NCBI GenBank assembly: GCA_003599335.1
Contig: QZJN01000001.1
Span: forward strand, 6,167-70,166
Length of the DNA stretch: 64,000 bases
Direction: 5' to 3'
Source of the DNA: Candidatus Parcubacteria bacterium
GTDB lineage: Bacteria > Patescibacteriota > Minisyncoccia > SURF-38
Below are positions 47,524 through 62,908 of this stretch, piece by piece. Under the pieces are notes generated by a model. That model did not search any database and was not told the DNA's origin. It was given only the letters and a program-made list of their open reading frames with translations. Position numbers and translations under genes: made by a program. Each line of letters begins with the position of its first letter. Within the stretch, counting starts at the first letter, position 1.

Positions 47524-50166
47524 ATGCTGAATTTTTTATTCGGAGATTCAAACGAGAGGGTGATAAAAAGACTCCGTCCAATTGCCGAACGTATTGGGGA
47601 GTTTGAACAAAAAACCGAAAAGTTATCTAATGAAGAATTAAAACAAAAAACTCAAACCTTTAAGGGAAGTTTGAGTTCGGGGATATCTTTGGAAGATATT
47701 TTGCCAGAGGCTTTTGCTCTTGTTAGAGAAGCCGCTAAAAGAACTTTGAAACAAAGACACTTTGATGTCCAGCTTATGGGCGGGGTGGTTTTGCATGAAG
47801 GTAATATAGCCGAGATGAAAACCGGCGAAGGCAAGACTTTGGTTGCGACTTTATCTGCCTATCTGAATTCTTTATCGGGAGAAGGAGTTCATGTTGTGAC
47901 GGTCAATGACTATTTGGCCAGACGCGATAGCGTTTGGATGGGACAGATTTATCATATGCTCGGCCTTAAGGTTGCATGCATAAATCATGACGCCTCATAT
48001 CTTTATGATCCGACACATATTGAAAAACAAGAAGAAAAAGACAAAGAACGCGATATTTTAGGCAGCTTCAAGGTTATATATGAATTTTTAAAGCCGATAT
48101 CGCGCAAGGAGGCCTATGAGGCTGATATTGTTTATGGAACAAATTCGGAATTCGGATTTGATTATTTAAGAGATAATTTAAGTTATGATAAAAACCAAGT
48201 CGTTCAACGGGGACACCATTACGCAATTGTTGATGAAATTGACTCAATTTTAATTGATGAGGCGCGAACACCCCTTATTATTTCAGCGCCAGACGAAGAG
48301 GCCGGCGAGCTTTATCGTAAATTTGCACAAGTGGCTAAGTATCTTAAACCGGGGACCCATTATCTCGTTGATGAAAAACGTCGGGCGACAACAATTACCG
48401 ACGAAGGCATAGAGGAGGCCCAAAGAAGAGCAGGAATTGGAAATATCTATGAAGCTGGGAATATTCGCTATGCCCACCATTTGGAGCAGGCGGTTCGGGC
48501 TGAAGCTTTATTTAAGCGTGATAAGGATTATGTGGTAAGAGATGGCGATATAGTGATAGTTGATGAATTCACTGGTAGGCTTTTGCCGGGCAGGCGTTAT
48601 TCAGAGGGGCTTCATCAGGCTATTGAAGCAAAAGAGGGTGTTAAAGTGCAAAGAGAATCAAAAACAGTAGCAACAATAACTTTTCAGAATTATTTCAGAT
48701 TATATAAGAAACTTTCCGGAATGACGGGTACGGCTTTAACCAGCGCCCAGGAATTTCATAAAGTTTACAATATTGAAGTTGTGGTAATACCTCCAAATAA
48801 GGCCTTGGCGCGCAAGGATTTGTCAGATGTTATTTATAAAACAGAACAGGCTAAATGGCGTGCCGTTGTAGAAGAGATAAAGTTGCGTCAGCAAACGGGT
48901 CAACCTGTTTTGTGCGGTACAACTTCAATTGAAAAAAACGAAAAATTGAGTGCCATGCTTAAAGTTGCCGGTGTGCAGCACAAAGTTTTAAACGCAAAAA
49001 ATCACGAACAGGATGGTGAAATTATTGCTCAAGCTGGCAAAGCCGGCGCGGTGACTGTCGCGACAAATATCGCTGGAAGAGGAGTTGATATTATCCTTGG
49101 GGGAAATCCGGCTTCGGCCGAGGAAGCCGAGCTGGTGAAAGCCGCAGGCGGCCTACATGTTATTGGAACTGAAAGGCACGAAGCCAGGCGTATTGATAAC
49201 CAACTTCGCGGGCGGGCCGGCAGGCAAGGAGACCCAGGTTCATCGCAATTTTTTGTTTCTTTGGAAGACGATGTTATTAGGGTTTTTGGCGGTGAACGCA
49301 TTAAGGGGTTTATGGAGACGCTGGGTCTGCCAGAAGATGTTCCGATTACTCATGGCATGGTTAGTAAGGCAATTGAATCAGCTCAAGCCAAAATAGAATC
49401 TTTTAATTTTGACGCCCGAAAATATGTTCTTGAGTTTGACGACGTAATGAACAAGCAGCGTCAGTATCTTTATAAATTACGTAGAGATATCGTTGAATCA
49501 GCATCGCAAAACCCTCAAAAAATAAAAGAGCTTGTTTTGGAATATATAAAATCTCAAACAAGAAAGTTGGTTGAATTTCACTTTTCTCAAGAGGGAGGGT
49601 TAAACAAAGACGAATTTAATAAGGTTTTGGTTGCTTGGGCAGGAGATCGGGGCTGGCAGAATATAGTTGAGAAAAATAATAGTGATTTAGAAGCGATCAT
49701 AGAAAGACTAACGGAAAAGTTTAATATCTTATATGAACAAAAAGAAAAAGAAGCCGGAAAAGATATTTTTTTTCAAACACAGAAAAACCTTTTGTTGCAG
49801 GTTATAGACACTTTATGGACCGAGCATATAAATAATATGGAGCATTTAAGAGATTCGGTGCGCTTGAGAGCTTACGGGCAAAGAGATCCCCTTGTTGAAT
49901 ACAAAAAAGAAGGACTAGAATTGTTTAAGCAATTAAAAGAAGCAATTCCGGGATTATTTGTGGCAAATATATTTAAAGTAGGAATGGCGAGTGGAACACA
50001 GAAAGCACAACAACAAGCCGTAGGCTATAAACCTGTAAGCCATAAGAGTTCTACGGCTTACGGCTCGACGTCTGTTAAGGCTGGGGACAAAAAAGTTGGT
50101 CGGAATGATCCGTGCTGGTGCGGTAGTGGTAAAAAGTTCAAGAAGTGTCACGGCAAGGGGAACTAG
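47524..50166 (+). CDS. secA: Preprotein translocase ATPase SecA.
   Basis: DEAD-like motor (KTGEGKTLVATL, DEID). PPXD and helical scaffold domains. C-terminal zinc-binding tail CWCGSGKKFKKCHG. Confidence 0.95.
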   Translation: MLNFLFGDSNERVIKRLRPIAERIGEFEQKTEKLSNEELKQKTQTFKGSLSSGISLEDILPEAFALVREAAKRTLKQRHFDVQLMGGVVLHEGNIAEMKTGEGKTLVATLSAYLNSLSGEGVHVVTVNDYLARRDSVWMGQIYHMLGLKVACINHDASYLYDPTHIEKQEEKDKERDILGSFKVIYEFLKPISRKEAYEADIVYGTNSEFGFDYLRDNLSYDKNQVVQRGHHYAIVDEIDSILIDEARTPLIISAPDEEAGELYRKFAQVAKYLKPGTHYLVDEKRRATTITDEGIEEAQRRAGIGNIYEAGNIRYAHHLEQAVRAEALFKRDKDYVVRDGDIVIVDEFTGRLLPGRRYSEGLHQAIEAKEGVKVQRESKTVATITFQNYFRLYKKLSGMTGTALTSAQEFHKVYNIEVVVIPPNKALARKDLSDVIYKTEQAKWRAVVEEIKLRQQTGQPVLCGTTSIEKNEKLSAMLKVAGVQHKVLNAKNHEQDGEIIAQAGKAGAVTVATNIAGRGVDIILGGNPASAEEAELVKAAGGLHVIGTERHEARRIDNQLRGRAGRQGDPGSSQFFVSLEDDVIRVFGGERIKGFMETLGLPEDVPITHGMVSKAIESAQAKIESFNFDARKYVLEFDDVMNKQRQYLYKLRRDIVESASQNPQKIKELVLEYIKSQTRKLVEFHFSQEGGLNKDEFNKVLVAWAGDRGWQNIVEKNNSDLEAIIERLTEKFNILYEQKEKEAGKDIFFQTQKNLLLQVIDTLWTEHINNMEHLRDSVRLRAYGQRDPLVEYKKEGLELFKQLKEAIPGLFVANIFKVGMASGTQKAQQQAVGYKPVSHKSSTAYGSTSVKAGDKKVGRNDPCWCGSGKKFKKCHGKGN

Positions 50167-51755
50167 AGGATAAAGTCGATCTCCACACGGCCTTCTCCTG
50201 CGCGAATTTCCTTGATAATACTGCGTAGAATCAACTTTCGCTCATCCAGCTCCATAGCCGCCCAAGCAGTATCAAAATCTCTCATCGAAGCCACCAGTTT
50301 TTGGATAGAGGCACCTTTTTGTGCGGTCAGGGACGATAGTGTCGCCAAGCGATCCCGCTCCGTGCGGCTTTTCCCAGTTTCCTCTCGAATTTTCTCAATT
50401 CGCGCTTGGTATTCCTCGATCGTGGAAATACCTCTTTCGTAGGCATCGTGTTGGCGCTGTATCTTGATTGGTTCGAGTGCTATCTCTCGCTCTAAGCGTA
50501 CAATCTCTTTTTCTCGATCCTGCTCGTCTTGCCCCTTTTCCTCGTAGACGATCTTTTCCTGAACTTTAGGATGCGAGTATAGGTTTTTTATGTGATCGAG
50601 TACATCAGCTTCCAATCTCGTGGCGCTCATTACTCGTTGTGAGCAAATGCCTTTGTATTTGTAGCCAGTGCAGATGTACTCAAATGTGATCGTGTTTTTC
50701 CAATTTGGATTTTTCTTTGATCTTGAATGGTATCGTTTTTGGTATCCCACGCCATTTCCGCATCGGATGCATTTAGCGAGGCCTGTAAGGAGCCCGTGTG
50801 ATCGTGCAGCTGCCCCGCGTGCGCTTCTTGTGCGACCGTTACGGATCTCTTGAACTTTATTAAATAGAGGCGGATCGATTATTGGTGTGTGGTTTCCATC
50901 GCCAATGTATCCGAGTTTGCCTCTGCGTCGCCACTCTTTTGTTTTCCTATATTCAGCGTGTCGCCAGCCCCACCACACTTTGCCCATGTAGGTTGGATTG
51001 CACAAAATGTATCGAAGAGCGGCTTTTGACCAGTCGCCACCTCTGCGAGCTTTCCAGCCCTTGCGATTCATTTCAATGACTATCTTCCTGTCTCCTATGC
51101 CTCGTGCGTATTCGTTGAAGATATATTTCACCCGCGTGGCTTCTTCTTCGTTCACAACCACTGTTCTCTTGATTCGTGCGCCGTCTAGTTCTCGTTTAAC
51201 CTCGTAACCATAGGGAACTCGGTTTGGAATGCTTCCAGCTTTTGCTTTTCCCAGCTTTCCCATTTTCATACGCTGGATAATTGCCTTACGCTCCATGTCC
51301 GATCTTAGGTCGGACATTGCCTCAACCATTGTTCCCATTTGGTCTTCGTCGGGTTCATACTCACCAGTTGATTTTGGTTCAAAGGGCGTATTGAGGGCGT
51401 AAGTTTGAATGCTTAATTCTTTGAGTTCGCCTCTTATAACGCCAGCGGCATCTTTGTTTCTGGCAAAGCGATCATAATCTTTGACCACGATGAGATCGAA
51501 TTTGTGTTCACGCGCATCTCGCAACATTGACTGAAGACCGTTTCGCTCCTCGGTAAGGTGACCGCTGATGCCCTCGTCTTTGTATTCTTGGATAAACGAC
51601 CATCCCTTTTCGTTGATGCTTTTGTGACAGCGTTCCAGCTGATCGGGAATGGACGCTTTGCCCTGGGCCTGTTCTTGGGTGCTTACGCGAACGTAAATGA
51701 CCGCTCGTAAGACTTGGGGCTTCTTGTCGATATTCGGTTGGGTCAGATTAAGCAT
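50163..51755 (-). CDS. Large serine recombinase (resolvase/invertase catalytic domain, recombinase domain and zinc ribbon).
   Basis: N-terminus AVIYVRVSTQEQ (catalytic Ser). The ~530-aa length, the central recombinase domain, and Cys clusters (CIRCGNGVGY ... CTGYKYKGICS) are typical of phage/ICE serine integrases. Confidence 0.85.
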   Translation of the reverse strand: MLNLTQPNIDKKPQVLRAVIYVRVSTQEQAQGKASIPDQLERCHKSINEKGWSFIQEYKDEGISGHLTEERNGLQSMLRDAREHKFDLIVVKDYDRFARNKDAAGVIRGELKELSIQTYALNTPFEPKSTGEYEPDEDQMGTMVEAMSDLRSDMERKAIIQRMKMGKLGKAKAGSIPNRVPYGYEVKRELDGARIKRTVVVNEEEATRVKYIFNEYARGIGDRKIVIEMNRKGWKARRGGDWSKAALRYILCNPTYMGKVWWGWRHAEYRKTKEWRRRGKLGYIGDGNHTPIIDPPLFNKVQEIRNGRTRSARGAAARSHGLLTGLAKCIRCGNGVGYQKRYHSRSKKNPNWKNTITFEYICTGYKYKGICSQRVMSATRLEADVLDHIKNLYSHPKVQEKIVYEEKGQDEQDREKEIVRLEREIALEPIKIQRQHDAYERGISTIEEYQARIEKIREETGKSRTERDRLATLSSLTAQKGASIQKLVASMRDFDTAWAAMELDERKLILRSIIKEIRAGEGRVEIDFIL

Positions 51756-51846
51756 GGAATTGTGAGATTTTGTCGGGCAACGAACATTATGGCGTTAACG
51801 TCGGGTAAGCCAAGCTCGAGATGTCCACATTGGGAAAACGTTATAA

Positions 51847-52278
51847 TCATTGGCTCCAGCGCGACAGCTTCCTTTGGTTATATGGAGACTTGGTATATGG
51901 GAGTCGATAACACTTTCGACACATGGGCGATTCGAGGTAGGTATGAAAATAGAGGAATTTAACTCGTCGTCCGCAACTGTTGCAGATGAAGTAAAAGAGG
52001 TATCCTCGGCTTCTGCCAAGATTCGATGGAATGCAGTCGACCTTTTGGTGCTTCCAGTAAGGTTGTTCATTGCGAATGTCCTCCAATGACTTGAAAGTCG
52101 TGTTCGCTGGTATGTTCATCAGATCTCTTACTCGTAAGGCATCGAGCTCTGTTTTGATTTCGGTTTGCTTTTCTTCTTTGTTCGATAATTCACGCAAAAA
52201 AGTTCTCAGATAGTCATAGATATCTATCCGTTCGATTAGGCGTTCCTCGTCTGGTATCTGTATTTGCTTAATAGGCAT
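51847..52278 (-). CDS. Hypothetical zinc-ribbon protein co-oriented upstream of the recombinase (possible recombination directionality or accessory factor).
   Basis: 143 aa. Pattern CNSCGRRV...CRKCYR (C-x2-C ... C-x2-C). Lies 91 bp upstream of the recombinase start. Confidence 0.4.
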   Translation of the reverse strand: MPIKQIQIPDEERLIERIDIYDYLRTFLRELSNKEEKQTEIKTELDALRVRDLMNIPANTTFKSLEDIRNEQPYWKHQKVDCIPSNLGRSRGYLFYFICNSCGRRVKFLYFHTYLESPMCRKCYRLPYTKSPYNQRKLSRWSQ

Positions 52279-52818
52279 AATCTCTAATAATTTCTATTGT
52301 TTTCTTTTGCTTTGCTCATAGCTTTCCTAAAAGCCCGTTTGTGAACGTGTCAGGCTGGCTCGCAGTCTTTGGTCGGTTGTTTCTCCGAGACCGCTACCTC
52401 TCACTGTCGGACGGAGTCCCGCTCGGGCTCGCCGCTGATGTTATATCGCCAAGAGGATTAGCCCAACGATATAAGTGATCCCCATAGTGTTTTCTTTTGC
52501 TTACGCTCAAGGAGATTTCCACGGCGTCTCCTCACGCCGAACCTATGAAGTCCGCGCTTTTAATGGCATCCAGAGGGAGGTATATCGCGCGGTTCGCCCA
52601 CCTTCCCCTCCAGCTTTTGTTTTTGATCCCGAGCTTGAACAATCCTTTCCTTTTCTCTTTTCATTACTGCAGGCAAAACGGTCGAGATTGCTTCGGCCAG
52701 TTTGTCTGCAAGGATTGTTTTCTGATCTTGGGACATGGATTAAACAAATAACCACCAGCGCGATGACGTGACGCTGGCGGTTATTTGTTGACGACGTCAT
52801 CGCCGATCGCAATAAAAA

Positions 52819-52845
52819 ACTACGATCTTGTTTTGATCGTAGCTT
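52819..52845 (-). terminator. Rho-independent terminator for the minus-strand gene 52895-53575.
   Basis: On the minus strand: ctacgatcaaaacaagatcgtag followed by TTTTTT. Confidence 0.45.
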
Positions 52846-52894
52846 TCTGTGAAGCGCCCGTCGTATTCCTTTTAGTCGCGACTTACGAGAAACA

Positions 52895-53575
52895 TTATTC
52901 TTTTTGATTGGCTACTTTACGGATGTACCCGCCGCTTAATTCTTTTGTAGTTAGGCCGCGTTTGACGAGAATCCTTGAGACTAGCAAATCTCTTTCTTTG
53001 GTGGTGGACCCAGCTTCTTTTTGGAGTACCCCAAGGTTGGTGCGCCATAGTTCACGAATCGTGCGGTTTTGTTCTTTGTGGGTTGTTTTGCGAACGCGAT
53101 GAGTTTTGTTAATGTTTTTGTTTAGTGTGAGCTCGATCTCTCTCCAGTTCTTTTTTATGAATTCCAGCACCTTTTCTTGTGTGGCATTTCCAAAAAGAAG
53201 CAGTTTTGCTGTGGGTTCGTACATGCCATCGTAAAGATCCTCAAGCTCTTTCGTGGGGGAAAGAAGGGCTACTGGAGACTTCTTCTTCGGCGCGTTTACT
53301 GGCTTTCCGAAGAAAATGTAATCATCAATGAATTCGAAATAGGGCGTAGGCACTTTGTATTTTGTTTTTAAATGTAGTTCTGTTCCGAGGAGTTCAATGA
53401 CGTTTGCTTTCTTATATTCAATCCAGAGTTTTTCTCTGGTTTGGGGATCCATATAACCAGAAGGGGTAATTCCAAGATGTTTCCTCGCCTCGGCAAGATC
53501 GTTTTGGAATTCAGGCTTGAGCGAGAGTTTATAAAAAAACTCCACGCCTGAGTTTATTTCGTCATCTTTCGTCAT
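52895..53575 (-). CDS. Hypothetical protein (element cargo).
   Basis: 226-aa ORF with normal amino-acid composition and no recognisable motif. Has its own terminator. Confidence 0.45.
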   Translation of the reverse strand: MTKDDEINSGVEFFYKLSLKPEFQNDLAEARKHLGITPSGYMDPQTREKLWIEYKKANVIELLGTELHLKTKYKVPTPYFEFIDDYIFFGKPVNAPKKKSPVALLSPTKELEDLYDGMYEPTAKLLLFGNATQEKVLEFIKKNWREIELTLNKNINKTHRVRKTTHKEQNRTIRELWRTNLGVLQKEAGSTTKERDLLVSRILVKRGLTTKELSGGYIRKVANQKE

Positions 53576-53819
53576 ACTTTCACATTCTGCGTAAAATACT
53601 CGTTTTATTCAAGTTTGCCGAGCGGCCGCCTACGCATTTCCATCAAGTTATGGTATTATTTTTACGACAATTGAATATTCGCCTAAACTCGTCGATTTCT
53701 CGGCGGGCATGGTATCAAGACCGATAAAGCATAAAAAACCCGTCATGGGGTTGCTTTATCGGCCGTATGGGGAAACCTGTACGTCTTGCGCAAGCGAGAG
53801 ACCCGTGGCGGGCTTTTTG

Positions 53820-53964
53820 TATGAACATAATAATTTTACTTGTAGCACTAATAGCAATCGCGATCATATTTGGTCGACGACCAGCGCAAGCTATCGTATT
53901 GTGGGGTGGCGGGATTATTCTTGCAGTCATACTGATATATTTTTTCTGGTACTTCTTCTTGTGA
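53820..53964 (+). CDS. Small two-TM membrane protein (speculative).
   Basis: MNIIILLVALIAIAIIFGRRPAQAIVLWGGGIILAVILIYFFWYFFL. Two hydrophobic helices. Confidence 0.25.
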
Positions 53965-54068
53965 TTTTTTGTTTTAGTGATGGAAATGTGGGCATGACAA
54001 AACATGCCATTTTTTGACATGGCGAAATTTTATTGCTATGCTGAAATAACTTTAATCATTTTAAAAGC

Positions 54069-54257
54069 ATGTCAGAGGAAAAACTTCTAACAATCGAAGA
54101 GGTGGCAGAGAAGCTCCGTGTTAGTACACGGACGATTATTCGCTATATCGAATCAGGTCGACTTAAGGCATCAAAAATCGGTGTGTGGCGCATTAAGGAA
54201 TCTGATCTAGCCCACTTCCTTGAGGAGTCGAGCAACGTTAAGCGCAAGAAGAAATAA
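54069..54257 (+). CDS. Excisionase/MerR-type HTH DNA-binding protein.
   Basis: LLTIEEVAEKLRVSTRTIIRYIESGRLKASKIGVWRIKESDL matches the HTH_17 / excisionase-family helix-turn-helix. Confidence 0.65.
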   Translation: MSEEKLLTIEEVAEKLRVSTRTIIRYIESGRLKASKIGVWRIKESDLAHFLEESSNVKRKKK

Positions 54258-54258
54258 T

Positions 54259-56613
54259 ATGCCTGACAAATCCTTATCAGAACGAGATATTTGCACCAAA
54301 TTCATCACACCCGCGATCACGAAAGCAGGATGGGATTTGCAGCACCAGATTCGAGAAGAGGTATCTTTTACCGCTGGACGTATTAATGTCCGCGGAAAGA
54401 CTATTTCGAGGGGAGAGAGGAAGCGTGCCGATTATATTTTGTATTATAAAAACAATCTTCCGATCGCTCTTATTGAGGCAAAAGACGCAAGTCATTCCGT
54501 CGGCGATGGTATGCAGCAGGCTCTCGGGTATGGGCAGGTGCTTGATATCCCGTTTGTATATAGCTCAAATGGTTCGGGGTTTCTTGAGCACGATTTTTTT
54601 AGTGGTTCTGAAAAGGAGATTTCTATTGATGCCTTTCCTGATCCCGCCGAGCTTTATCGCAGATATCGAGAGCAAAAGAAGCTAACCCCAGAAATAGAAG
54701 AGGCGGTTCTTCAGGATTATTATCAGGGTTTAACATCGCATGAGCCGCGATATTACCAGCGCGTAGCAATAAATCGCGCTGTTGAGGCGGTAGCACGGAA
54801 TCAGAAGCGGATTTTGTTGGTAATGGCTACTGGAACTGGAAAGACCTATACCGCCTTTCAGATAATCTGGCGGCTTTGGAAAGCACGGAAGAAAAAGCGA
54901 ATACTTTTCCTTGTTGATCGCACAGCTCTCGCAACGCAGACCATGCAGGGCGATTTTCGCCACTTTGGCGATAAGATGACGAAGATTGAAGGGCGAATCG
55001 CCGATCCCTCCTATGAGGTCTACATTGCTTTATATCAGGGACTCACAAGCCATGAAGAGCAGAATAAGCTTTTTAAACAATTTTCTTCCGATTTTTTTGA
55101 TCTCGTTGTCGTTGATGAGTGTCACAGGGGAAGCGCAAAAGAGAATTCTGTGTGGCGTGAAATTCTCGAATACTATTCCGACGCAACTCAAATTGGTCTG
55201 ACTGCTACGCCAAAAGAGACGAAGGATATCAGCACGCAAGACTACTTTGGGGATGCGGTATACACCTATTCTTTAAAACAGGGAATCGAGGATGGATTCT
55301 TGGCTCCCTACAAAGTTATTCGTTATGTTCTCGATAAAGATATTGAGTGGCGGCCGAATGAATTAGTGCGCGATCAGCACGGAAATCCGATTGAGGATCG
55401 TGTATATAATGCTTCCGATTACGATCGCAACATTGTTATCAAGAATCGAACTAAGCTCGTTGCGCAAAAGATTACCGAATTTGTGCGGGATACTGATCCG
55501 ATGCAAAAGGCGATTATTTTTTGCGTTGATATTGATCATGCCGAACGAATGCGGGAAGAACTGGTAAACGCCAACAGCGAATACGTATCCAAGAATCATC
55601 GCTATGTGGTACGCATCACGGGCGATAATGACGAGGGTAAAAAGGAGATTGAGAATTTCATCAACCCCGAGTCGCCATACCCAGTATTGGTTACAACTTC
55701 CAAGCTTCTAACTACTGGTGTCGATGCTCAAACATGTAAACTCATTGTTCTCGATGCTCCCATAAATTCGATGAGCGAATTCAAGCAGATTATTGGTCGT
55801 GGGACTCGCGTGAACGAGGATTACGGCAAGTTTTATTTCACGATCATGGATTTTCGAGGCGTAACGCGGCTGTTCGCTGATCCTAACTTTGATGGAGAGC
55901 CTGTAAAGATCTACGAACCAGATGATAAGACGACCATCGGGCAACACATTGAGGAAGAAACAGTTGATCCGAGTGAAATTAAAGAAGAGAATCCGCAGGA
56001 GGAAATTTTGATTGACCCTACTCTTGAGGAAGGAGAGAAGAAGGAGAAGGTGGTAGTCACGCGAGGAGTTGAATTCGATGTGGCGACAAAAATGATTCAG
56101 TATATTGACCCTGCCACGGGCAAACTTATTGCAGAGAATCTTACGGATTACTCCAAGAAGCAGATTTTAGGTACGTTGCCATCGCTCGATGCATTTATTA
56201 AAGAGTGGTCTGCCGCGGAGCGCAAAGATGCGATTATTCAGGAGTTAGAAAGCAGAGGTGTGCCGCTGGAAGAACTGCGAAAGGAGATAGGGTTAAATGT
56301 CGATGTTTTTGATTTGGTGCTACACGTGGCTTATAACCGAAAGCCGCTCACACGCTCAGAACGGGTGGCAAACGTGCGCAAAGGGGATTATTTTGCCAAA
56401 TACGAGGGTAGGGCGCGGCAGGTTATCGAGGCATTACTTGATAAGTACGCTGACCAAGGTAGTATCGCCATCGACGATATTGGCGATCTTGAAGTTTCGC
56501 CATTTGCAGAAATAGGGACTCCTGTTGAGATAGTTAATGATATTTTTGGTGGCCGAGAGCAATACTTTGGAGTTTTGAAAACTTTACAAGAAAAACTCTA
56601 CGCACTTAACTAG
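54259..56613 (+). CDS. hsdR: Type I restriction enzyme R subunit (HsdR).
   Basis: N-terminal PD-(D/E)xK nuclease (ICTKFITPAI...GW; IALIEAKD). SF2 helicase motifs I LLVMATGTGKT and II DECHR. The hsdM and hsdS genes lie immediately downstream. Start placed at MPDKS. Confidence 0.8.
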   Translation: MPDKSLSERDICTKFITPAITKAGWDLQHQIREEVSFTAGRINVRGKTISRGERKRADYILYYKNNLPIALIEAKDASHSVGDGMQQALGYGQVLDIPFVYSSNGSGFLEHDFFSGSEKEISIDAFPDPAELYRRYREQKKLTPEIEEAVLQDYYQGLTSHEPRYYQRVAINRAVEAVARNQKRILLVMATGTGKTYTAFQIIWRLWKARKKKRILFLVDRTALATQTMQGDFRHFGDKMTKIEGRIADPSYEVYIALYQGLTSHEEQNKLFKQFSSDFFDLVVVDECHRGSAKENSVWREILEYYSDATQIGLTATPKETKDISTQDYFGDAVYTYSLKQGIEDGFLAPYKVIRYVLDKDIEWRPNELVRDQHGNPIEDRVYNASDYDRNIVIKNRTKLVAQKITEFVRDTDPMQKAIIFCVDIDHAERMREELVNANSEYVSKNHRYVVRITGDNDEGKKEIENFINPESPYPVLVTTSKLLTTGVDAQTCKLIVLDAPINSMSEFKQIIGRGTRVNEDYGKFYFTIMDFRGVTRLFADPNFDGEPVKIYEPDDKTTIGQHIEEETVDPSEIKEENPQEEILIDPTLEEGEKKEKVVVTRGVEFDVATKMIQYIDPATGKLIAENLTDYSKKQILGTLPSLDAFIKEWSAAERKDAIIQELESRGVPLEELRKEIGLNVDVFDLVLHVAYNRKPLTRSERVANVRKGDYFAKYEGRARQVIEALLDKYADQGSIAIDDIGDLEVSPFAEIGTPVEIVNDIFGGREQYFGVLKTLQEKLYALN

Positions 56614-56621
56614 ACTAACTT

Positions 56622-58046
56622 ATGCCGATCGAAAATCTTATCAAAACAATCCAAAATATAATGCGCAAAGACCAGGGCGTTGCTGGTGATGGTCAGCGCA
56701 TTGAGCAGATAGTGTGGATGTTATTTCTGAAGATTTTTGATGATCAGGAAAAGTATTACGAGCTTCGAGATCAGAAGTATCGTTCTCCAATACCCGAGAA
56801 GCTTCGTTGGAGAAATTGGGCGGCAAACCCCGAAGGAATCACAGGCGATGAGTTATTGGAATTTGTAAACCAAAAGCTCTTTCCAGGTCTCAAGAATCTC
56901 TCAGTTGATTCCAGTGATAGGCGCGGCCTTCTTGTTCGTACCGCTTTTGAGGATGCCTATAACTACATGAAATCAGGGACGCTGATTCGACAGGTGGTAA
57001 ACAGGATCAATGAGATTGATTTCAACAAGAAGTCAGACCGTCACTTACTTAATGATATCTACGAGAAGCTTCTGAAAGAACTTCAGGGTGCGGGTAATTA
57101 CGGCGAGTTTTATACGCCTCGGCCGCTTACAAAGTTTATTGTTGAGATGATCGACCCGAAGCTTGGTGAAAAGGTGCTCGACCCCTCGTGTGGTACTGGC
57201 GGTTTCTTGGTGAATACGATTGAGTATGTCCGTGAGAATTATGTAAAGAGCCATGCAGATGAAAAGAAACTCCATGATTCGATTCATGGTGTTGAGCTCA
57301 AGTCATTGCCACATCTTCTAGCACTTACAAACATGATTCTTCATGGGATTGAGTTGCCCGACAATGTTCGTCGCGATGATATGCTTTCTCGGCCACTAAC
57401 GGAATATGGCCCTAAGGATCGTGTCGATGTAATTGTGGCGAATCCTCCCTTTGGTGCTTCGGTTAAGGACGGAACTGAGAAGAATTTTCCAAGTGAAATG
57501 CGCACCAAAGAAACTGCCGATCTCTTTTTGATTTTATTCATTCATCTTTTGAAAGATGGTGGCCGAGCGGGCATCGTATTGCCCGACGGATCGCTTTCTG
57601 GTGAAGGTGTTAAGGCTCGGATTAAAGAAAAATTGCTTGCAGAATGTAATGTACACACAATTGTTCGGTTGCCACAGGGTGTGTTTAGTCCCTATGCTGG
57701 TGTAAACACCAACCTCGTCTTTTTTGAGAAGGGGAAACCGACTAAGGAAATTTGGTACTACCAGTTGCCGCTTCCAGAAGGAATTAAGCAATACACAAAG
57801 GGGCGTGGCATTACGCACGATGAATTTGATTCTGTTCGAAAATGGTGGAAGAAGCGCGTTACGAACGAGAACGCTTGGAAAGTCTCAATAGATAAAATAA
57901 AAGAACGCAATTACAACATTGACATTAAAAATCCCAATGGTGGTACTTCGGTTAACTTCGGAGACCCTGTGGATGTTCTTGAAAAAATCGTTAACTCCGA
58001 GAAAGAAATCATTGCGCTTTTGAATGAAATTAAGAAAGAATTATGA
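56622..58046 (+). CDS. hsdM: Type I R-M N6-adenine DNA methyltransferase (HsdM).
   Basis: Motif I DPSCGTGGFL. Motif IV NPPFG. N-terminal HsdM_N region. Confidence 0.9.
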   Translation: MPIENLIKTIQNIMRKDQGVAGDGQRIEQIVWMLFLKIFDDQEKYYELRDQKYRSPIPEKLRWRNWAANPEGITGDELLEFVNQKLFPGLKNLSVDSSDRRGLLVRTAFEDAYNYMKSGTLIRQVVNRINEIDFNKKSDRHLLNDIYEKLLKELQGAGNYGEFYTPRPLTKFIVEMIDPKLGEKVLDPSCGTGGFLVNTIEYVRENYVKSHADEKKLHDSIHGVELKSLPHLLALTNMILHGIELPDNVRRDDMLSRPLTEYGPKDRVDVIVANPPFGASVKDGTEKNFPSEMRTKETADLFLILFIHLLKDGGRAGIVLPDGSLSGEGVKARIKEKLLAECNVHTIVRLPQGVFSPYAGVNTNLVFFEKGKPTKEIWYYQLPLPEGIKQYTKGRGITHDEFDSVRKWWKKRVTNENAWKVSIDKIKERNYNIDIKNPNGGTSVNFGDPVDVLEKIVNSEKEIIALLNEIKKEL

Positions 58047-59236
58047 ATCATTGGCCGCTTAAAAAATTAGGTGATGAATCGATCCTCATGATGACTAGCG
58101 GTGGAACTCCATCTCGCTCTAAATCTGAATTTTATGGAGGTAAGATTCTTTGGCTAAAATCTGGTGAATTGAATGATAATCAAAAGATTTCCGATTCAGA
58201 AGAAAAGATCACTGATCAAGCGGTTAAGAACTCTAGTGCCAAACTTTTCCCGCCTCATACAGTGCTTTTTGCAATGTATGGAGCTACCGCAGGAAAATTA
58301 GGCATATTAGATGTAGAAGCAACCACAAATCAAGCAGTTGCAGGAATGATTTGTAACGACAGCGTTCTATTTTATAAGTACCTTTTTTATTTTTTGCTAT
58401 ACACACGAGAAAAAATCATTGCTAATGCTTGGGGAGGAGCGCAACCAAATTTAAGCCAGACAATAATCAAGAAGTTTGAAATACCTGTTCCGTCTATTTC
58501 AGAACAAAAGAAAATAGTTACGAAACTTGAAAGTTTACTCGCGAAGGAAAATCAGGTAAAGCAACTACGAGAACAAACACAAGTCGATACGGACAGTTTA
58601 ATTTTCGCAGAACTACATAAGATTTTTAAGGAAGGCAAAGCAAAAGGATGGGAAGAAAAAGATTTGGGCAATGTGCTAGAAAAGATTGTTGGTGGTGGAA
58701 CTCCGTCAAAGGCTAACCCCTTATATTGGGACGGAGATATTCCCTGGGCAAGCGTGAAGGATATTAAAGAGGGCCAGTACACATTAGCCGAAACACAAGA
58801 TTTTATAACCAAGGAGGGACTGCAAAATAGTGCTTCAAATATTGTCCCCGCTGGATCACTGATTATTTCAACAAGAATGGGACTTGGTCGTATTGTTAAA
58901 ACAGAGATTGATGTTGCTATAAATCAAGATCTAAAGGCCTTATACCCAAAAAAAGAATTAAACAATGATTACCTGCTTTGGTTCTATATTAGCAAGGCCC
59001 AGGAAGTAATCGCTAGTGGAACTGGGGCAACCGTTTCTGGTGTTCGTTTGGACGACATTAAGAGCATAAAAATTCTATTACCATCTCTGACGGATCAAAA
59101 GAAAATTGTTGATCATCTCACCCTGCTTTTGGAGAAAATTAAAAACACCAAGTCTTTACAGGATGTAACTTATAGTGAGATTGGTATTTTAGAACAATCA
59201 ATTTTATCAAAAGCATTTAGCGGAAGCTTTGTTTAA
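58043..59236 (+). CDS. hsdS: Type I R-M specificity subunit (HsdS) with two target-recognition domains.
   Basis: Duplicated TRD pattern (…SGGTPSRSKSEFYGGKILWLKSGEL… and …GGGTPSKANPLYWDGDIPWASVKDI…) separated by conserved helical spacers. Start overlaps the hsdM stop (ATGA). Confidence 0.8.
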   Translation: MNHWPLKKLGDESILMMTSGGTPSRSKSEFYGGKILWLKSGELNDNQKISDSEEKITDQAVKNSSAKLFPPHTVLFAMYGATAGKLGILDVEATTNQAVAGMICNDSVLFYKYLFYFLLYTREKIIANAWGGAQPNLSQTIIKKFEIPVPSISEQKKIVTKLESLLAKENQVKQLREQTQVDTDSLIFAELHKIFKEGKAKGWEEKDLGNVLEKIVGGGTPSKANPLYWDGDIPWASVKDIKEGQYTLAETQDFITKEGLQNSASNIVPAGSLIISTRMGLGRIVKTEIDVAINQDLKALYPKKELNNDYLLWFYISKAQEVIASGTGATVSGVRLDDIKSIKILLPSLTDQKKIVDHLTLLLEKIKNTKSLQDVTYSEIGILEQSILSKAFSGSFV

Positions 59237-59240
59237 TTTC

Positions 59241-59402
59241 ATGGAACTTTCTAAGAAAACAGTTGAAGAATTCAGAGAGATATTCAAGAAAGAATACGGC
59301 GTTGAGTATTCGGATCAGGAAGCTTGGGAAGCAGCGCATAATCTTGTAGGCTTTTTTGATTTGCTCTTAAAAATTGATCACAGGCAGAAAGAGGGTCAAT
59401 AA
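59241..59402 (+). CDS. Small 53-aa hypothetical ORF between hsdS and the 967-aa gene.
   Basis: MELSKKTVEEFREIFKKEYGVEYSDQEAWEAAHNLVGFFDLLLKIDHRQKEGQ. Tightly packed (4 bp after the hsdS stop, 14 bp before the next gene). No motif. Confidence 0.3.
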   Translation: MELSKKTVEEFREIFKKEYGVEYSDQEAWEAAHNLVGFFDLLLKIDHRQKEGQ

Positions 59403-59416
59403 TAATCATTTTCGAT

Positions 59417-62320
59417 ATGTCTTCGTTACGACAATTAAAGCAACAAATAAAATTCAGTTTAAACAATTTGAAAGCTGAAAACTCCCATCATGATTTTGAG
59501 GCTATTTGTCGACATTTTGCACGAAAACGATTAGGCCTGAATATAATTCCCGCTACAGGGCCCGTTTCAGCTGGAGGAGACCAGGGGAGAGATTTCGAAA
59601 CTTATGAAATATTACCAGAGGCAGTTCCAGAACTTCGAGGAACAAGACAGGTTATAGACAAGAAAGCCGCTTTTGCTTGCACTACGCAGGCCGAAGGTCT
59701 TTTATCCAAGATAAAAGCGGATGTTAATAAAATTATTACTCAAGGTAATAGGGTTGATATAGTTTATTTTTTTTCAGTGCAGGATCTACCTGTGTCCGAG
59801 CGGCACGATCTGCAAAAGTGGGCACTAGAAACACATAAAATTACCTTAGAAGTTTTTGATGGCGAAGCGCTTTCTGAAGACCTGACTGAGAGAGACTTAT
59901 TTTGGGTAGCCCAGGAATATTTACATATTCCTGCCGAGTTATTCCCACCCGTTGATAATATTGATTACTTGAAGCTGAAAGAAAAGTGGGAAACGAGAGA
60001 GTTGTCAGTTCCCAATTACGCCGAATTCGACGAGATAAAAAGCTTAGCTAGGAAATCATTATTCGATAAATCCCTGAATCAAGATATTCCATTTTGGTTA
60101 GATAAGTTGGCAAAGTTCGCAGCAATTAAAGATATTTCCTCGGAATTTAAGAGGAAAGCTCTTTATGAGTTAATAGCCATTCGCATGAGGGGCATGCGCG
60201 ACATGGTTGGTTGGGAGCATTACACGCACGAATACTTTGCAGCTCATGAGAGTTTTAACCATCAAGTTGAAGCGCAAGAGGCCACGGTTGTTTTAGGGTA
60301 TGCCTTCGGGGCATCAGTAAGAGGGGCGGCAAATTTTGAAGAGAGTCAATTAAAGACGTGGATCAAGCTTATCGAGGATTATACGGATCACGAGCTAAGT
60401 AAAGATTATCCCGTTGCAATAAGGGCAGTTTTATACGAATTAAAAGGTCATCAACTACTTACTAATCCGTACAATAGGAAAATTGATGAAGGGTTGGATT
60501 GGTGGCTCAAGCTTGTTGATCTTATTGAGCAATCACCATTATTCCCACTTGAAAGATTTTCTGATGTTCTGACCGTTCTCATTCCGCTTATAGGTGACCA
60601 TCCAAAATTTGAAGAATTGAAAATCAAAACCGATGCTCTTATCGCACAACGAATAGGTGGTTTTGCGGTTGCTGATAAATGCAGAGATAGAGCAATTGAG
60701 TATAGAAAAAACGATGAATTGTTAAAAGCCCTTCGAGAATTTCATAGTGCCAAGATAAATTGGTTTGCAAACGAAACTCTATATGGATCATTGCTTTCAA
60801 TGATGATCATATCGGAGACCTACTTTGAGCTAGGTCTTTTATTTGCGGCAAAATACTACGCTATGGCAGTTACTTTTGTTGCGAGTCGTTCTCCAGATGA
60901 CAAAATAAAGCCATTCATTACCAGAGGGCTTTCACAGGTTGCGGAAATCGAATACGGCAATGGCGAATGGGGTCATTTTATGGAACACGCCGATCTAAGC
61001 CTGAGGTCTTTAGGTGTACACTCGAAGACCATTGAAGATCCAATTTCTGAAAAGATTTATGAGAAAACACTGTTTTACTCTTCAATGGTTTATGTTTTTG
61101 CGAAGGTACTTGATGGTAAGAAACTTTTTAATTATGTGGCAGATAGAGTTAAGAAATGGAATATTTCTGAGCTTAACGATGATTTGATTCCGATAGCAGA
61201 GAAAACCTGGGCAGAGGTTAAAGCAGAAAATATGCTTGAGAAAATCAAAGCCTCGCTTGAGGGCAGACCGTTTAATGATGTTGGATCTACCCGATCTGTT
61301 TTGTGGGAAGCATGCGGGATTAGTTGGAAGTGTTCTTGGAACAATACGTTAAGGGGATGCGCGAGAGCAGAACATTTTATATCGCTAGTCCAAATAATTC
61401 TTGCGGATATCGCAGATAGAGATTTTTACTTATTAAAAACAGACGCACAAATAAAGTTCATTTTCACAGATAAGTTTCATATCGAGCGGGTGCCTACAAA
61501 TGATTATGTCGCGTGGGATATATATCTTCCAACGCATAATCCAGATGGAAGGAGGGAAATTGAGGAATATCATGCGCAAATTCTAAGTATGGCAGCTGCA
61601 GTCATTGCTGATTTGTCTTTGTTACCATCCGAACAGACACTAGAGAAAATCAAGGATTTATATAAGCAAGGTCTTGTGTCGAAAGCGCTGTCAGGAAATT
61701 CTTATGAAGTTTTGTACATCGACTTGAACCCCGAAGAGTTATTTAATGAACTGATCTCATTACCACAATTAGACTATTTGCAGTCTATGGAGATAGGGAA
61801 TAAGCCCCATAAATTACTAAACTGGGAGAGCTCTTTATTAAAAGGATACAGCCCAAAAGAAGAGCGTGAGAAGATTGAAAATAGGTATACGCGATCAATA
61901 TTGCCAATAAGGAAGACTATTGAAAAATTAAAGAAGGACCCAAAATTTCAAGAGATGGTAAAGAGATTAAGGTCGGATGGATGGAAAGATTGGCACATTC
62001 TTATGTCATTGGGGATGATTGCTGTAAATTTTCGCGTTAATAAGATAGGCTACAAGTCGTTTGAATCCATGCGAGAACTATTTGTTAAGGAGATGAACAC
62101 TGAAGAAACGAATGATTCAACCCCAGTTCCCCTTGAAGAATTCAACGAAAAAGCACTTAGACTGTCACTGTTCATGAGTATGCCGTCGACTCTCAAAATC
62201 TTTGGGCTTGAGATTAAGACTCAAACACCAAATTCCAAGGCACTTGAGCATTTTTTGGCAAAGAGGCTTAATTATTGGAATAACGATATCGAGCACAAAG
62301 ATATCCTTGCTGTTTCTTAG
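59417..62320 (+). CDS. Uncharacterised 967-aa protein with an N-terminal Mrr-like PD-(D/E)xK restriction-endonuclease-type motif. Candidate defence gene.
   Basis: The N-terminal ~150 aa contain HDFE...GGDQGRDFE...(FACTTQ), resembling the Mrr_cat D...GDxGxD...(Q)xK arrangement. The remaining ~800 aa are largely helical with no P-loop and no recognisable motif. Sits directly 3' of a complete Type I R-M operon. Confidence 0.6.
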   Translation: MSSLRQLKQQIKFSLNNLKAENSHHDFEAICRHFARKRLGLNIIPATGPVSAGGDQGRDFETYEILPEAVPELRGTRQVIDKKAAFACTTQAEGLLSKIKADVNKIITQGNRVDIVYFFSVQDLPVSERHDLQKWALETHKITLEVFDGEALSEDLTERDLFWVAQEYLHIPAELFPPVDNIDYLKLKEKWETRELSVPNYAEFDEIKSLARKSLFDKSLNQDIPFWLDKLAKFAAIKDISSEFKRKALYELIAIRMRGMRDMVGWEHYTHEYFAAHESFNHQVEAQEATVVLGYAFGASVRGAANFEESQLKTWIKLIEDYTDHELSKDYPVAIRAVLYELKGHQLLTNPYNRKIDEGLDWWLKLVDLIEQSPLFPLERFSDVLTVLIPLIGDHPKFEELKIKTDALIAQRIGGFAVADKCRDRAIEYRKNDELLKALREFHSAKINWFANETLYGSLLSMMIISETYFELGLLFAAKYYAMAVTFVASRSPDDKIKPFITRGLSQVAEIEYGNGEWGHFMEHADLSLRSLGVHSKTIEDPISEKIYEKTLFYSSMVYVFAKVLDGKKLFNYVADRVKKWNISELNDDLIPIAEKTWAEVKAENMLEKIKASLEGRPFNDVGSTRSVLWEACGISWKCSWNNTLRGCARAEHFISLVQIILADIADRDFYLLKTDAQIKFIFTDKFHIERVPTNDYVAWDIYLPTHNPDGRREIEEYHAQILSMAAAVIADLSLLPSEQTLEKIKDLYKQGLVSKALSGNSYEVLYIDLNPEELFNELISLPQLDYLQSMEIGNKPHKLLNWESSLLKGYSPKEEREKIENRYTRSILPIRKTIEKLKKDPKFQEMVKRLRSDGWKDWHILMSLGMIAVNFRVNKIGYKSFESMRELFVKEMNTEETNDSTPVPLEEFNEKALRLSLFMSMPSTLKIFGLEIKTQTPNSKALEHFLAKRLNYWNNDIEHKDILAVS

Positions 62321-62329
62321 AATATTCAA

Positions 62330-62521
62330 ATGAGTAGACGATCATTTCATGGCAACTTAGGTTCATTACTCAACAAGCTGTTTACGCTGGTCATTTTTCT
62401 GATTCTGTTCAAGCTTTTTGGAGATTCGGTTTTAGATGCCGCTGTGATAGGATTGATATCATTAGCGGTTTATCCTTTAGTCGGAATGCTTTTAAGAGCC
62501 GTCGGGATATGGCGTTACTAA
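62330..62521 (+). CDS. Small two-TM membrane protein (speculative).
   Basis: 63 aa: LFTLVIFLILFKLF ... VIGLISLAVYPLVGMLL. Confidence 0.3.
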   Translation: MSRRSFHGNLGSLLNKLFTLVIFLILFKLFGDSVLDAAVIGLISLAVYPLVGMLLRAVGIWRY

Positions 62522-62537
62522 CGGCAAAGATACAAAT

Positions 62538-62702
62538 ATGGGTATAATGGCACCAAAAATTGAAAGCGCGGAAGCTCTTAAGGCTATAGCAAAAGAGGCT
62601 AGTAAGGCTTGGTATTTGAAGCCTGAAATTTGGATAGGAATTGTGGCCAATGTAATTGCCATCGGTGCGCTGGTCGTTGCCGTAATTGCCTTGCAGAAAT
62701 GA
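62538..62702 (+). CDS. Small membrane protein (speculative).
   Basis: 54 aa: amphipathic N-terminus then IWIGIVANVIAIGALVVAVIAL. Below the ORF-track cutoff. Confidence 0.25.
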   Translation: MGIMAPKIESAEALKAIAKEASKAWYLKPEIWIGIVANVIAIGALVVAVIALQK

Positions 62703-62750
62703 CCTTCCCATTGGTATCGCATATCAAAAAATGCCATGGGAAATGATCAT

Positions 62751-62900
62751 ATGAGATGTCCAAAATGTAGCCAAGAAATGTTTATAAAACGAGAAGATAC
62801 AAGTTCTGATTCCAGAAATAATAAGCAATACGACCGTAAAGTGTACTGGTGTAAAAAGGATGATGTATGGGTCAGCATCGAGATTCCGAAAGAAGTATAA
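62751..62900 (+). CDS. Small zinc-ribbon protein (speculative).
   Basis: MRCPKCSQEM...VYWCKKDD: C-x2-C ... C pattern. Shares the upstream motif aaaaat(g/a)ccatgggaaat with the SET gene. Confidence 0.35.
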   Translation: MRCPKCSQEMFIKREDTSSDSRNNKQYDRKVYWCKKDDVWVSIEIPKEV

Positions 62901-62908
62901 AAAATACC

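Follow-up and report, generated by a model that had tools for sequence, protein, structure and literature searches.

A Probable Integrative Island at the 3′ Coding End of secA in a Candidatus Parcubacteria Bacterium, with Its Own Large Serine Recombinase and a LOOT RNA

Introduction

The 64,000-nucleotide stretch of chromosomal DNA considered here (the window) comes from a Candidatus Parcubacteria bacterium of the Candidate Phyla Radiation (CPR/Patescibacteria) and holds, between positions 50140 and 62727, what is very probably a 12.6-kb integrative genomic island that was integrated by its own large serine recombinase (LSR) into the 3′ coding end of the host gene secA, with an AA dinucleotide as the likeliest point of exchange. 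With the crossover set at 50140-50141 and 62726-62727, the element is 12,586 bp long. In the proposed mechanism, the LSR would recombine the attachment site of the element (attP) with a bacterial site (attB) made of the 3′ coding end of secA, most likely at the AA that opens the Lys-Lys-Cys-His codons of the SEC-C zinc-binding motif. The P′ arm of attP would be a coding mimic of the secA tail; after integration the secA frame would continue into element DNA, which would provide the Cys and His zinc ligands and a short tail, GKGN, before regaining a stop codon that overlaps the stop of the convergent recombinase gene (CTAG). SecA would stay intact on integration because the element supplies this short tail together with the Cys and His, which we take, from general knowledge of the CxCx8C[HC] motif, to be the last two zinc ligands of SEC-C. 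The native tail, KKCHGK* (asterisk, stop codon), would have been moved 12.6 kb downstream to the right junction (attR), and excision would bring it back.

A preliminary description of this DNA had already proposed an integrative element moved by an LSR, with the secA 3′ end as attB and a helix-turn-helix (HTH) protein and restriction-modification (R-M) genes as cargo, and the present analysis supports that outline. The window is part of the 82.9-kb Joint Genome Institute contig Ga0104756_1000164; locus L001, whose coordinates are converted to those of the window by adding 49416, carries the sequence on to window-equivalent position 72320. The NCBI entries for SecA and for the recombinase, both from a Candidatus Parcubacteria metagenome-assembled genome, are RJQ14869.1 and RJQ14870.1, the latter annotated as “hypothetical protein.” Protein families were checked with Pfam, PHROGs, PADLOC, and NCBIfam, and RNAs with Rfam covariance models. 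The LSR family was sampled through 11 independent members, namely the window and 10 fetched loci, with 44-96% identity to the window LSR; the LSR-free comparison set consisted of about 160 secA loci gathered with SecA as query, and about 150 SecA tails were compared.

The Recombinase and Its Association with secA

By the criteria of sequence and site, the 530-aa enzyme is a large serine integrase. It carries the Resolvase (PF00239, 89.6 bits against a cut-off of 23.3), Recombinase (PF07508, 71 bits), and Zn_ribbon_recom (PF13408, 30.7 bits) domains, all above cut-off, and matches a PHROG integrase family at 2e-101. The motif y-v-R-V-S-T-q-e-Q, which includes the nucleophilic serine (Ser25), aligns with the catalytic domain of the TP901-1 integrase and is invariant in the family, as are the zinc-ribbon cysteines C329, C332, C362, and C371, and residues 286-529 align with the C-terminal domains of the A118 integrase. 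The protein ends in ...VEIDFIL*, as family members do, so that the junction has not cut the gene short and the recombinase is complete. A protein search delimited a clade of about 100 full-length homologues (42-96% identity), beyond which the next matches fall to about 30%; all named sources belong to the CPR (Patescibacteria, Woesebacteria, Daviesbacteria, and Microgenomates), and no relative was found in 2.9 million viral contigs. The literature yielded no relevant report on integration into secA, on serine recombinases in the CPR, or on this LSR family.

Nine of the 11 sampled LSR genes are convergent to secA. The two stop codons overlap by 4 nt in L082 (LSR 96% identical to that of the window), L172 (71%), L083 (70%), and L085 (67%), as they do in the window; the genes are separated by gaps of 126 nt in L169 (52%), 20 nt in L170 (46%), and 9 nt in L171 (44%), and in L175 (at least 90%) the LSR lies against secA on a contig that ends 45 nt beyond the LSR stop. 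The other two members (L168 and L173/L174, both 70%) lie away from secA, among TrwB-like, Replic_Relax, or DUF87 genes, in contexts resembling plasmids or integrative and conjugative elements (ICEs). Beside the LSR stop, L168 bears TTCAAAAAGTGTCATCTAAATAGGAATTAA (FKKCHLNRN*), with an in-frame stop just upstream and no secA, and L173/L174 bear TTCAAGAGGTGTCACGGAAATGGGAACTAA (FKRCHGNGN*), again with no secA; the mimic of L168 matches the true SecA tail of L170 (KKCHLNREPQG*). The likeliest reading of these copies is as attP sites that have not integrated, with a right arm that mimics the coding tail of secA. Both come from forest-soil assemblies (the LSR of L168 lies at 10001-11665) and may represent CPR plasmids or conjugative elements in the excised state.

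The persistence of the convergent secA-LSR arrangement down to 44% LSR identity might suggest a fixed, domesticated neighbor of secA, inherited vertically in part of the CPR, yet this explanation is scarcely credible. No member of the LSR family was found at the approximately 160 other secA loci, CPR loci among them. Nearly identical LSRs occur in hosts whose SecA proteins are only about 40-50% identical, and members of one 90%-identity LSR cluster are spread over three hosts, with many synonymous differences between their secA 3′ ends. The cargo differs at every LSR locus (for instance, AAA_25 ATPase, DUF5659, tyrosine integrase, AbiEii, methyltransferases, primase, or KAP NTPase), attR sites with displaced secA tails exist, and attP-type copies reside in plasmid-like contexts. 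The pattern of loci is that of a mobile element with a fixed target, not that of a vertically inherited gene pair.

The Left Junction and the Element-Derived End of secA

The secA TAG (50164-50166) overlaps the stop of the convergent 530-aa LSR gene in the tetranucleotide CTAG at 50163-50166, common to both, as the preliminary description had seen; it had also placed the insertion exactly at this stop codon, with secA wholly host DNA and the right end past the window. The overlap of the two stops would suit such an insertion, as would the full length of SecA and its normal SEC-C motif, but we regard it as highly improbable given the distribution of SecA tails. Beside the closer LSRs, SecA ends in KKCHGKGN* (window), KKCHGNGN* (L082), KKCCGYGN* (L175), KKCHMKGN* (L172), KKCCMKGN* (L083), or KKCHMNGN* (L085), all six coded by ...GGGAAC followed by TAG or TAA; a GN* ending is found in 0 of about 150 LSR-free SecAs, which typically end in KKCHGK*, KKCHGA*, or KKCCGKAA*. 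The same tail stands beside the LSR in the attP-type contigs that have no secA, and a displaced native tail with an attP-type arm is present at 62705-62746, within the window. Given that the GN* tail is LSR-linked and also present in attP-type copies without secA, the final codons and the stop with which secA now ends come from the element rather than from the host.

Comparison with L082 leads to the same place. Nucleotide identity between the two loci is low across the GSGKKF/Y codons and near-perfect from AAGAAGTG on, and before the junction the two SecAs share only about 40-50% identity. The junction lies inside 50138-50161, most likely at the AA at 50140-50141, about 24 nt inside secA; whichever crossover applies, element DNA provides at least the final codon and the stop of secA as it now stands.

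The Right Junction and the Displaced Native Tail

The right junction was first located by a search for the core AARAARTGY, a motif derived from other loci, and lies in the spacer after the last small open reading frame (ORF) of the element (stop 62700-62702). The pattern YCCAT-N14-AARARRTGYCAY, built from the left arms of L168 and L173 plus the core, has a single match in the window, at 62707-62737, and the native-tail pattern AARAARTGYCAYGGNAARTRR likewise matches once, at 62726-62746; each was matched in 0/100 shuffles. A scan for symmetry to the P′ arm of the element itself ranked 62726 first, and TTCCCATT at -21..-14 in attR mirrors AAGGGGAA at +14..+21 in attL. The P arm of the window aligns with the left arms of the attP sites of L173 and L168, and also with L172. 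The repeat of the secA 3′ end that the preliminary description had expected beyond the right edge of the window is therefore found inside it, at 62726-62746.

Rejoining the outer arms yields a SecA of 877 aa that ends in ...CGSGKKFKKCHGK*, the normal native tail of LSR-free CPR SecAs, and the rebuilt secA end is close to unoccupied secA ends at the nucleotide level, with L094 matching 15/17 positions. The reconstructed attP of the window (62681-62725 + 50140-50186) reads ...GACCTTCCCATTGGTATCGCATATC-AA-GAAGTGTCACGGCAAGGGGAACTAGAGG... at its junction, and the reconstructed empty attB (50095-50139 + 62726-62772) reads ...GGTAGTGGTAAAAAGTTC-AA-AAAATGCCATGGGAAATGATCATATG... The segment is thus bounded on both sides, and about 160 other secA loci are without it, the relatives of the host among them being distant.

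Simpler repeat searches did not reveal this junction. A long-repeat scan for a direct or inverted copy of the 62-nt attL gave chance-level matches only, because serine-integrase sites share too little sequence, and a search with the 15-mer core of attL, allowing up to 3 mismatches, matched only attL itself, because the native tail uses different synonymous codons. By the same symmetry scan, attR sites were found at 10.2 and 11.4 kb from attL in L169, at 11.1 kb in L171, and at 10.1 kb in L172, where the site reads CGCTTTCCCATTCGTATCACACATC-AA-AAGGTGCCACGGGAGATAA (KRCHGR*) and its left arm closely resembles the GACCTTCCCATTGGTATCGCATATC of the window. The attL/attR pairs of these three loci delimit elements of 10.1-11.1 kb.

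Additional tail copies were observed in two loci. The two attR-like sites of L169 lie 1.17 kb apart (reverse-complement coordinates 20072 and 21244), each with a P-type arm TAACACTTY and with the secA-tail remnants KKCHGNV* and KKCHGV*, which suggests tandem or successive insertions at one secA site; the tail copy of the L169 element includes a near-copy of the host terminator. In the window, a second, degenerate secA tail lies 173 bp past attR and overlaps the start of the host SET-domain gene. The two copies form a 19-nt direct repeat (AAAAAATGCCATGGGAAAT / AAAAAATACCATGGGAAAT, at 62726-62744 and 62899-62917) that flanks a 54-aa zinc-ribbon ORF (62736-62900), and within the repeat both this ORF and the SET-domain gene begin with ATGGGAAAT. 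To its left, the second copy has no sequence resembling a P arm; it could have arisen by local duplication or be left over from an earlier insertion.

The Point of Strand Exchange

Serine-integrase attP sites are pseudo-palindromes around a 2-bp crossover, with 25-bp half-sites (PMC3783163). Six attP sites, real or reconstructed (L168, L173, window, two of L169, and L171), were analyzed for dyad symmetry, and the best center was the same AA in 6/6, with 12-18 of 25 positions complementary; this AA constitutes the first two bases of the first Lys codon. Since attP sites are symmetric around the crossover and the dyad center is this AA, the exchange is placed at 50140-50141 and 62726-62727. The element thus has a pseudo-palindromic attP and hybrid attL and attR sites at its ends, and from their symmetry we infer the position of cleavage. 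The motif ATGGGAA stands at +15..+21 in the P′ arms and at +9..+15 in the B′ arm of the window, a 6-bp shift confined to one arm. In the LI integrase, the motif of the zinc-ribbon domain is moved 5 bp toward the center in attB (PMC3783163), a parallel that is suggestive only as support for the crossover.

An exchange by the same element in the shared GGGAA (50157-50161 / 62738-62742) would leave only the last one or two secA codons and the stop to the element and turn the KKCHG-like stretch at attR into P arm. This placement is unlikely. GGGAA is indeed common to attL and attR, and the attL of L175 differs from that of the window at +7..+16 despite an LSR identity of at least 90%, as if it were host DNA there. 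Against this, the symmetry of all six attP sites is centered on the upstream AA, attL and attR of L171 share only AA[A/G]AAGTGTCAT and then diverge, the implied native tail KKCHGKGK* was never seen among the SecA tails compared, and the window and L082 are identical at 15/16 positions in this stretch although their hosts differ.

Several points nonetheless weigh against the integration model set out above. Genome and metagenome scans found no close relative of the host (best SecA 62% identical), for which reason the empty site is reconstructed rather than observed; the 90% cluster of the window SecA has a single member, and in the retrieved SecA loci the downstream genes are not syntenic. Nor is the exact crossover fixed; several shared dinucleotides within 50138-50161 are formally possible because attL and attR encode the same peptide. 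The divergence of L175, whose LSR 3′ end is about 93% identical to that of the window, could reflect a crossover closer to the shared GGGAA. For the directionality factor there are candidates only, neither an excised circle nor an empty site from this population was seen, which leaves present-day activity presumptive, and the second secA-tail copy does not follow from the model. An element still capable of excision would agree with the intact state of the recombinase, of both att sites, and of the displaced native tail.

Backbone Genes and the LOOT RNA

The backbone of the window element consists of the recombinase, a zinc-ribbon protein, 58-aa and 226-aa proteins, and the LOOT small RNA (Table 1). 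The zinc-ribbon ORF, the 226-aa hypothetical protein, and the palindrome listed in the preliminary description were all recovered, as were, farther right, its excisionase-type HTH and the R-M genes that follow it.

Table 1. Coordinates of the secA-associated element, its attachment sites, and neighboring features (window positions unless a locus is named).
Feature	Position	Strand	Remarks
secA as now read	47524-50166	+	880 aa; all SecA Pfam domains, including SEC-C
secA, host part	47524-50139	+	Host DNA; final 8 codons and stop (50140/2-50166, KKCHGKGN*) most likely from the element
attL	50115-50166		Site alignment and reconstruction; dyad-symmetry center; nucleotide identity with L082 beginning at the core
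attL, B arm	50115-50139		secA codons for CGSGKKF
attL, proposed crossover AA	50140-50141
attL, P′ arm	50142-50166		Distal motif AAGGGGAA at 50155-50162, then shared CTAG stops at 50163-50166
Large serine recombinase (integrase)	50163-51755	-	530 aa, intact; Pfam, PHROG, and structure alignments
Zinc-ribbon protein	51847-52278	-	143 aa; CxxC...CxxC; just upstream of the integrase
58-aa backbone protein	52560-52736	-	Homologues in the L172, L083, and L082 elements
Palindrome	52743-52789		Arms of 18 nt with 94% complementarity; separates the 58-aa gene from the 226-aa gene
226-aa protein	52895-53575	-	Divergent from the LOOT RNA; no Pfam, PHROG, or NCBIfam match
LOOT RNA (RF03000)	53680-53799	+	87.9 bits against a gathering score of 46.4; model positions 1-121; stand-alone, then hairpin and U-run
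LOOT copies elsewhere	L082 879-995; L083 7479-7593; L169 4768-4891; L172 7246-7364; L175 6501-6617	-	Locus orientation
47-aa ORF	53821-53964	+	Very hydrophobic; right after the terminator-like hairpin of LOOT; putative coding
HTH_17 / excisionase-family DNA-binding protein	54069-54257	+	62 aa; heads the R-M operon
hsdR	54259-56613	+	Type I R-M system, 54259-59236; Pfam ResIII, EcoEI_R_C, and HSDR_N; PADLOC REase_I, 1048 bits
hsdM	56622-58046	+	Pfam N6_Mtase and HsdM_N; PADLOC MTase_I, 668 bits
hsdS	58043-59236	+	Pfam Methylase_S twice; PADLOC Specificity_I, 271 bits
53-aa ORF	59241-59402	+	Strong homologue in L172, there also preceding a large protein of no known function
967-aa protein	59417-62320	+	Predicted N-terminal alpha/beta domain, then long helical solenoid like tetratricopeptide repeats (TPR); AlphaFold predicted local distance difference test score 86.8
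Two small ORFs	62330-62521; 62538-62702	+	Second with hydrophobic tail, its stop abutting the P arm
attR	62701-62752		Pattern hits; symmetry scan; P-arm alignment to L173, L168, and L172
attR, P arm	62701-62725		Distal motif TTCCCATT at 62705-62712
attR, crossover AA	62726-62727		Most likely position
Displaced native secA tail	62726-62746		AAAAAATGCCATGGGAAATGA (KKCHGK*); opened by the B′ arm
Second, degenerate secA tail	62899-62919	+	AAAAAATACCATGGGAAATAG (KKYHGK*)

The 143-aa protein matches no family in Pfam, PHROG, PADLOC, or NCBIfam; L082 has a 60% identical homologue in the same position, where both L082 and L175 carry an ORF of the same size (145 aa). In L082, L083, L172, and L175, the divergent position of the 226-aa gene is taken by one of 239-289 aa, with a weak sequence match of the 226-aa protein to the L083 gene only. 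The palindrome is likely a terminator or an operator, and the GC-rich (guanine plus cytosine) non-coding stretch at 52285-52560 has no unusual structure (z = -1.0) and no Rfam match.

The LOOT RNA, which scores above the Rfam gathering threshold over the full model, is present in six of the nine sampled secA-integrated elements (window, L082, L083, L169, L172, and L175). It always lies on the strand opposite the LSR, is divergent from the 226-289-aa backbone gene in 5/6, and is followed by a hairpin and U-run in the flanks compared. A conserved, promoter-like box GACAATT(T/G)AAT stands just upstream of it in three of the four loci with compared flanks, with a variant in L083, and when the 2.8 Mb of fetched loci were scanned with a sequence profile of the six copies, no further LOOT appeared. 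In Rfam, LOOT is entered as an RNA derived from metagenomes (PMC7779021); the available papers, the text of the discovery paper included, gave no genomic context for it. After LOOT, L083 has a 62-aa ORF with a hydrophobic C-terminus that is absent from L082 and L169 in that place.

Cargo and Flanking Host Features

The cargo of the window element comprises the HTH_17 protein, a type I R-M system in which HsdR, HsdM, and HsdS occur together, and a 53-aa and 967-aa gene pair. The HTH_17 protein matches PF12728 (2.4e-17), the TIGR01764 “excise” model (43.3 bits, cut-off 28.8), PHROG excisionase families, and PADLOC mad1, and its gene is preceded by a promoter-like TTGACA-17-TATGCT at 54014-54042. 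It heads an R-M or methylase operon in the window and L175 and stands directly before the LSR in L170, and it is a candidate regulator or recombination directionality factor.

The 967-aa protein has no match in Pfam, PHROGs, PADLOC, NCBIfam, or PDB sequences, and its AlphaFold model gives only generic TPR fold matches. Its family is conserved in length (about 960-1030 aa) across the CPR, Chloroflexota, Bacteroidota, Methanobacterium, and Bathyarchaeota, with an invariant N-terminal motif …PxTGPVxxxGDQGxDFE…, and the Methanobacterium homologue does not adjoin R-M genes. The 53-aa and 967-aa pair may be a defense module. A 967-aa protein of the attP-type contig L168 was considered as a relative and proved unrelated, the equal length being coincidental.

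No relaxase, coupling-protein, or mating-pore gene was found by Pfam within 50140-62727, so that the element does not qualify as an ICE. A prophage or phage satellite is very unlikely as well. The integrase does match a PHROG integrase family, and the distant member L171 has a primase, a P4 cII-like gene, and a small-terminase-like gene; however, Pfam and PHROGs returned no capsid, tail, terminase, portal, or lysis match in 50140-62727, where the only PHROG hits are of integrase/excisionase type. The LSR has, moreover, no viral-contig relative, and the 12.6 kb are mostly an R-M system and one large gene of no known function. Because neither phage structural genes nor conjugation genes were found, the window copy is a plain integrative island; it may be mobilizable in trans.

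Two features of the host lie beyond attR and outside the window. Just past its edge, the GC-rich spacer of 250 nt that precedes secD (L001 15578-15835, window-equivalent 64994-65251) is strongly structured relative to shuffles (z = -7.3) and has no Rfam match; it may represent a structured RNA or a leader not yet described. Farther on, after secDF and a sigma-70 gene, a host pair of DUF8128 and TrwB/TraG-like coupling-protein genes (L001 19358-22435) is 27% identical to the TrwB-like gene of the attP-type contig L168.

Composition

The preliminary description had contrasted a recombinase block of about 50% GC, ending near 54.0 kb, with a host background of about 40%, and had proposed a sliding-window GC and tetranucleotide analysis. 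The excess is real but smaller: the block at 50140-54050 has 45.6% GC, with individual 500-nt windows reaching 0.50, against 39.3% for the host DNA at 1-50139. GC alone is not diagnostic for this block, because 3.9-kb windows of the host (mean 0.391, standard deviation 0.024) reach a maximum of 0.469. The whole element departs more clearly from its host, since its 42.7% GC exceeds every 12.6-kb host window (maximum 0.419) and its tetranucleotide correlation with the host is 0.865, compared with 0.94-0.98 for host chunks of equal size. Composition thus differs from that of the host, as does the cargo, which also varies between copies. One host gene (13886-17350) has 47.9% GC, equal to the recombinase gene, and GC alone would flag it as foreign.

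The GC-rich portion does not end near 54.0 kb but continues through hsdR and hsdM to about 57.7 kb, and hsdS and the 967-aa gene are host-like in GC. The lower GC of these two genes fits cargo exchange inside one element; the nested acquisition suggested earlier is not supported, since there is a single recombinase, a single attL, and a single attR, with no internal att-like site.

Comparison with Known Systems

The lifestyle of the window element appears closest, by analogy, to that of the staphylococcal cassette chromosome (SCC) elements. In staphylococci, the Ccr LSRs of SCC elements such as SCCmec insert a cargo island into the 3′ end of rlmH/orfX while keeping the reading frame. Similarly, the window LSR would put a cargo island into a conserved housekeeping gene, at the 3′ end of its coding sequence, with the frame left intact, and the repeated downstream tail copies (the second copy at 62899 in the window, the two attR-like sites in L169) suggest repeated use of the site. 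Unlike SCC, the window element has a single recombinase rather than a CcrAB pair, targets secA in a CPR host, and rewrites 8 codons, including those of two zinc ligands. Among the NCBIfam models, the LSR scores best with CcrB (187 bits, cut-off 900), followed by CcrC (119, cut-off 900) and CcrA (52, cut-off 700); with scores so far under the cut-offs, its identification as a Ccr protein was rejected.

The phage serine integrases (A118/LI, TP901-1, Bxb1, phiC31, and SPbeta SprA) resemble the window LSR in domain order (catalytic, recombinase, zinc ribbon) and in a pseudo-palindromic attP of about 50 bp with a 2-bp crossover center. The distal motif of the window lies about 14-21 bp from the center in attP and about 6 bp closer in the B′ arm, much like the 5-bp shift described for the LI integrase (PMC3783163), the B arm being without the shifted motif. 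These integrases usually split and inactivate their target (comK, spsM) or use a non-essential site, whereas the target here is essential and would be repaired by the element, which has no phage genes. The lambdoid phage 21 and the e14 element use tyrosine integrases and a long identical core at icd, and bring a replacement 3′ end for this essential gene, as other elements do for the genes that they enter. The window element follows the same principle, in that it would integrate within an essential gene, at its 3′ end, and bring along a near-copy of the part that it displaces, which keeps the gene functional, but its enzyme is a serine integrase, and the mimic is the P′ half-site itself, abutting the integrase stop codon.

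The mechanism proposed here is standard for serine integrases, and gene-repairing islands are well known; the element is an extension of known biology, with no new principle. What is notable is that a half-site would double as the end of the coding sequence of an essential gene, that the target is conserved across bacteria, that the family is spread across the CPR, and that it is linked with LOOT. The design is tight, in that one integrase half-site would encode two zinc ligands and the stop of an essential gene while overlapping the integrase stop, and the target motif is conserved in most bacterial SecA proteins.

Significance for the CPR

On a more tentative note, and with slightly less than even confidence, we propose that, for a whole clade of CPR integrases, the end of secA that encodes the zinc finger is an almost universal landing site, that the attP half-site doubles as a replacement tail, that the integrase gene stops right at the border of the site bound by its own product, and that LOOT is a conserved part of the backbone and perhaps a regulatory RNA. 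LOOT lies at a divergent promoter region between the integrase-side operon and the cargo and, from this position, may steer maintenance versus excision, or cargo expression. Compared with its Rfam entry, which knows the family from metagenomes only, LOOT is here tied to a defined family of mobile elements and to CPR hosts, and thus gains a concrete genomic and taxonomic setting. In the CPR/Patescibacteria, mobile elements are poorly charted and genetic tools almost nonexistent; for this system, sequence is enough to specify the integrase together with attP, attB, attL, and attR. If the proposal holds, it would provide the first biological context for LOOT and a natural integrase/att pair for CPR genetics.

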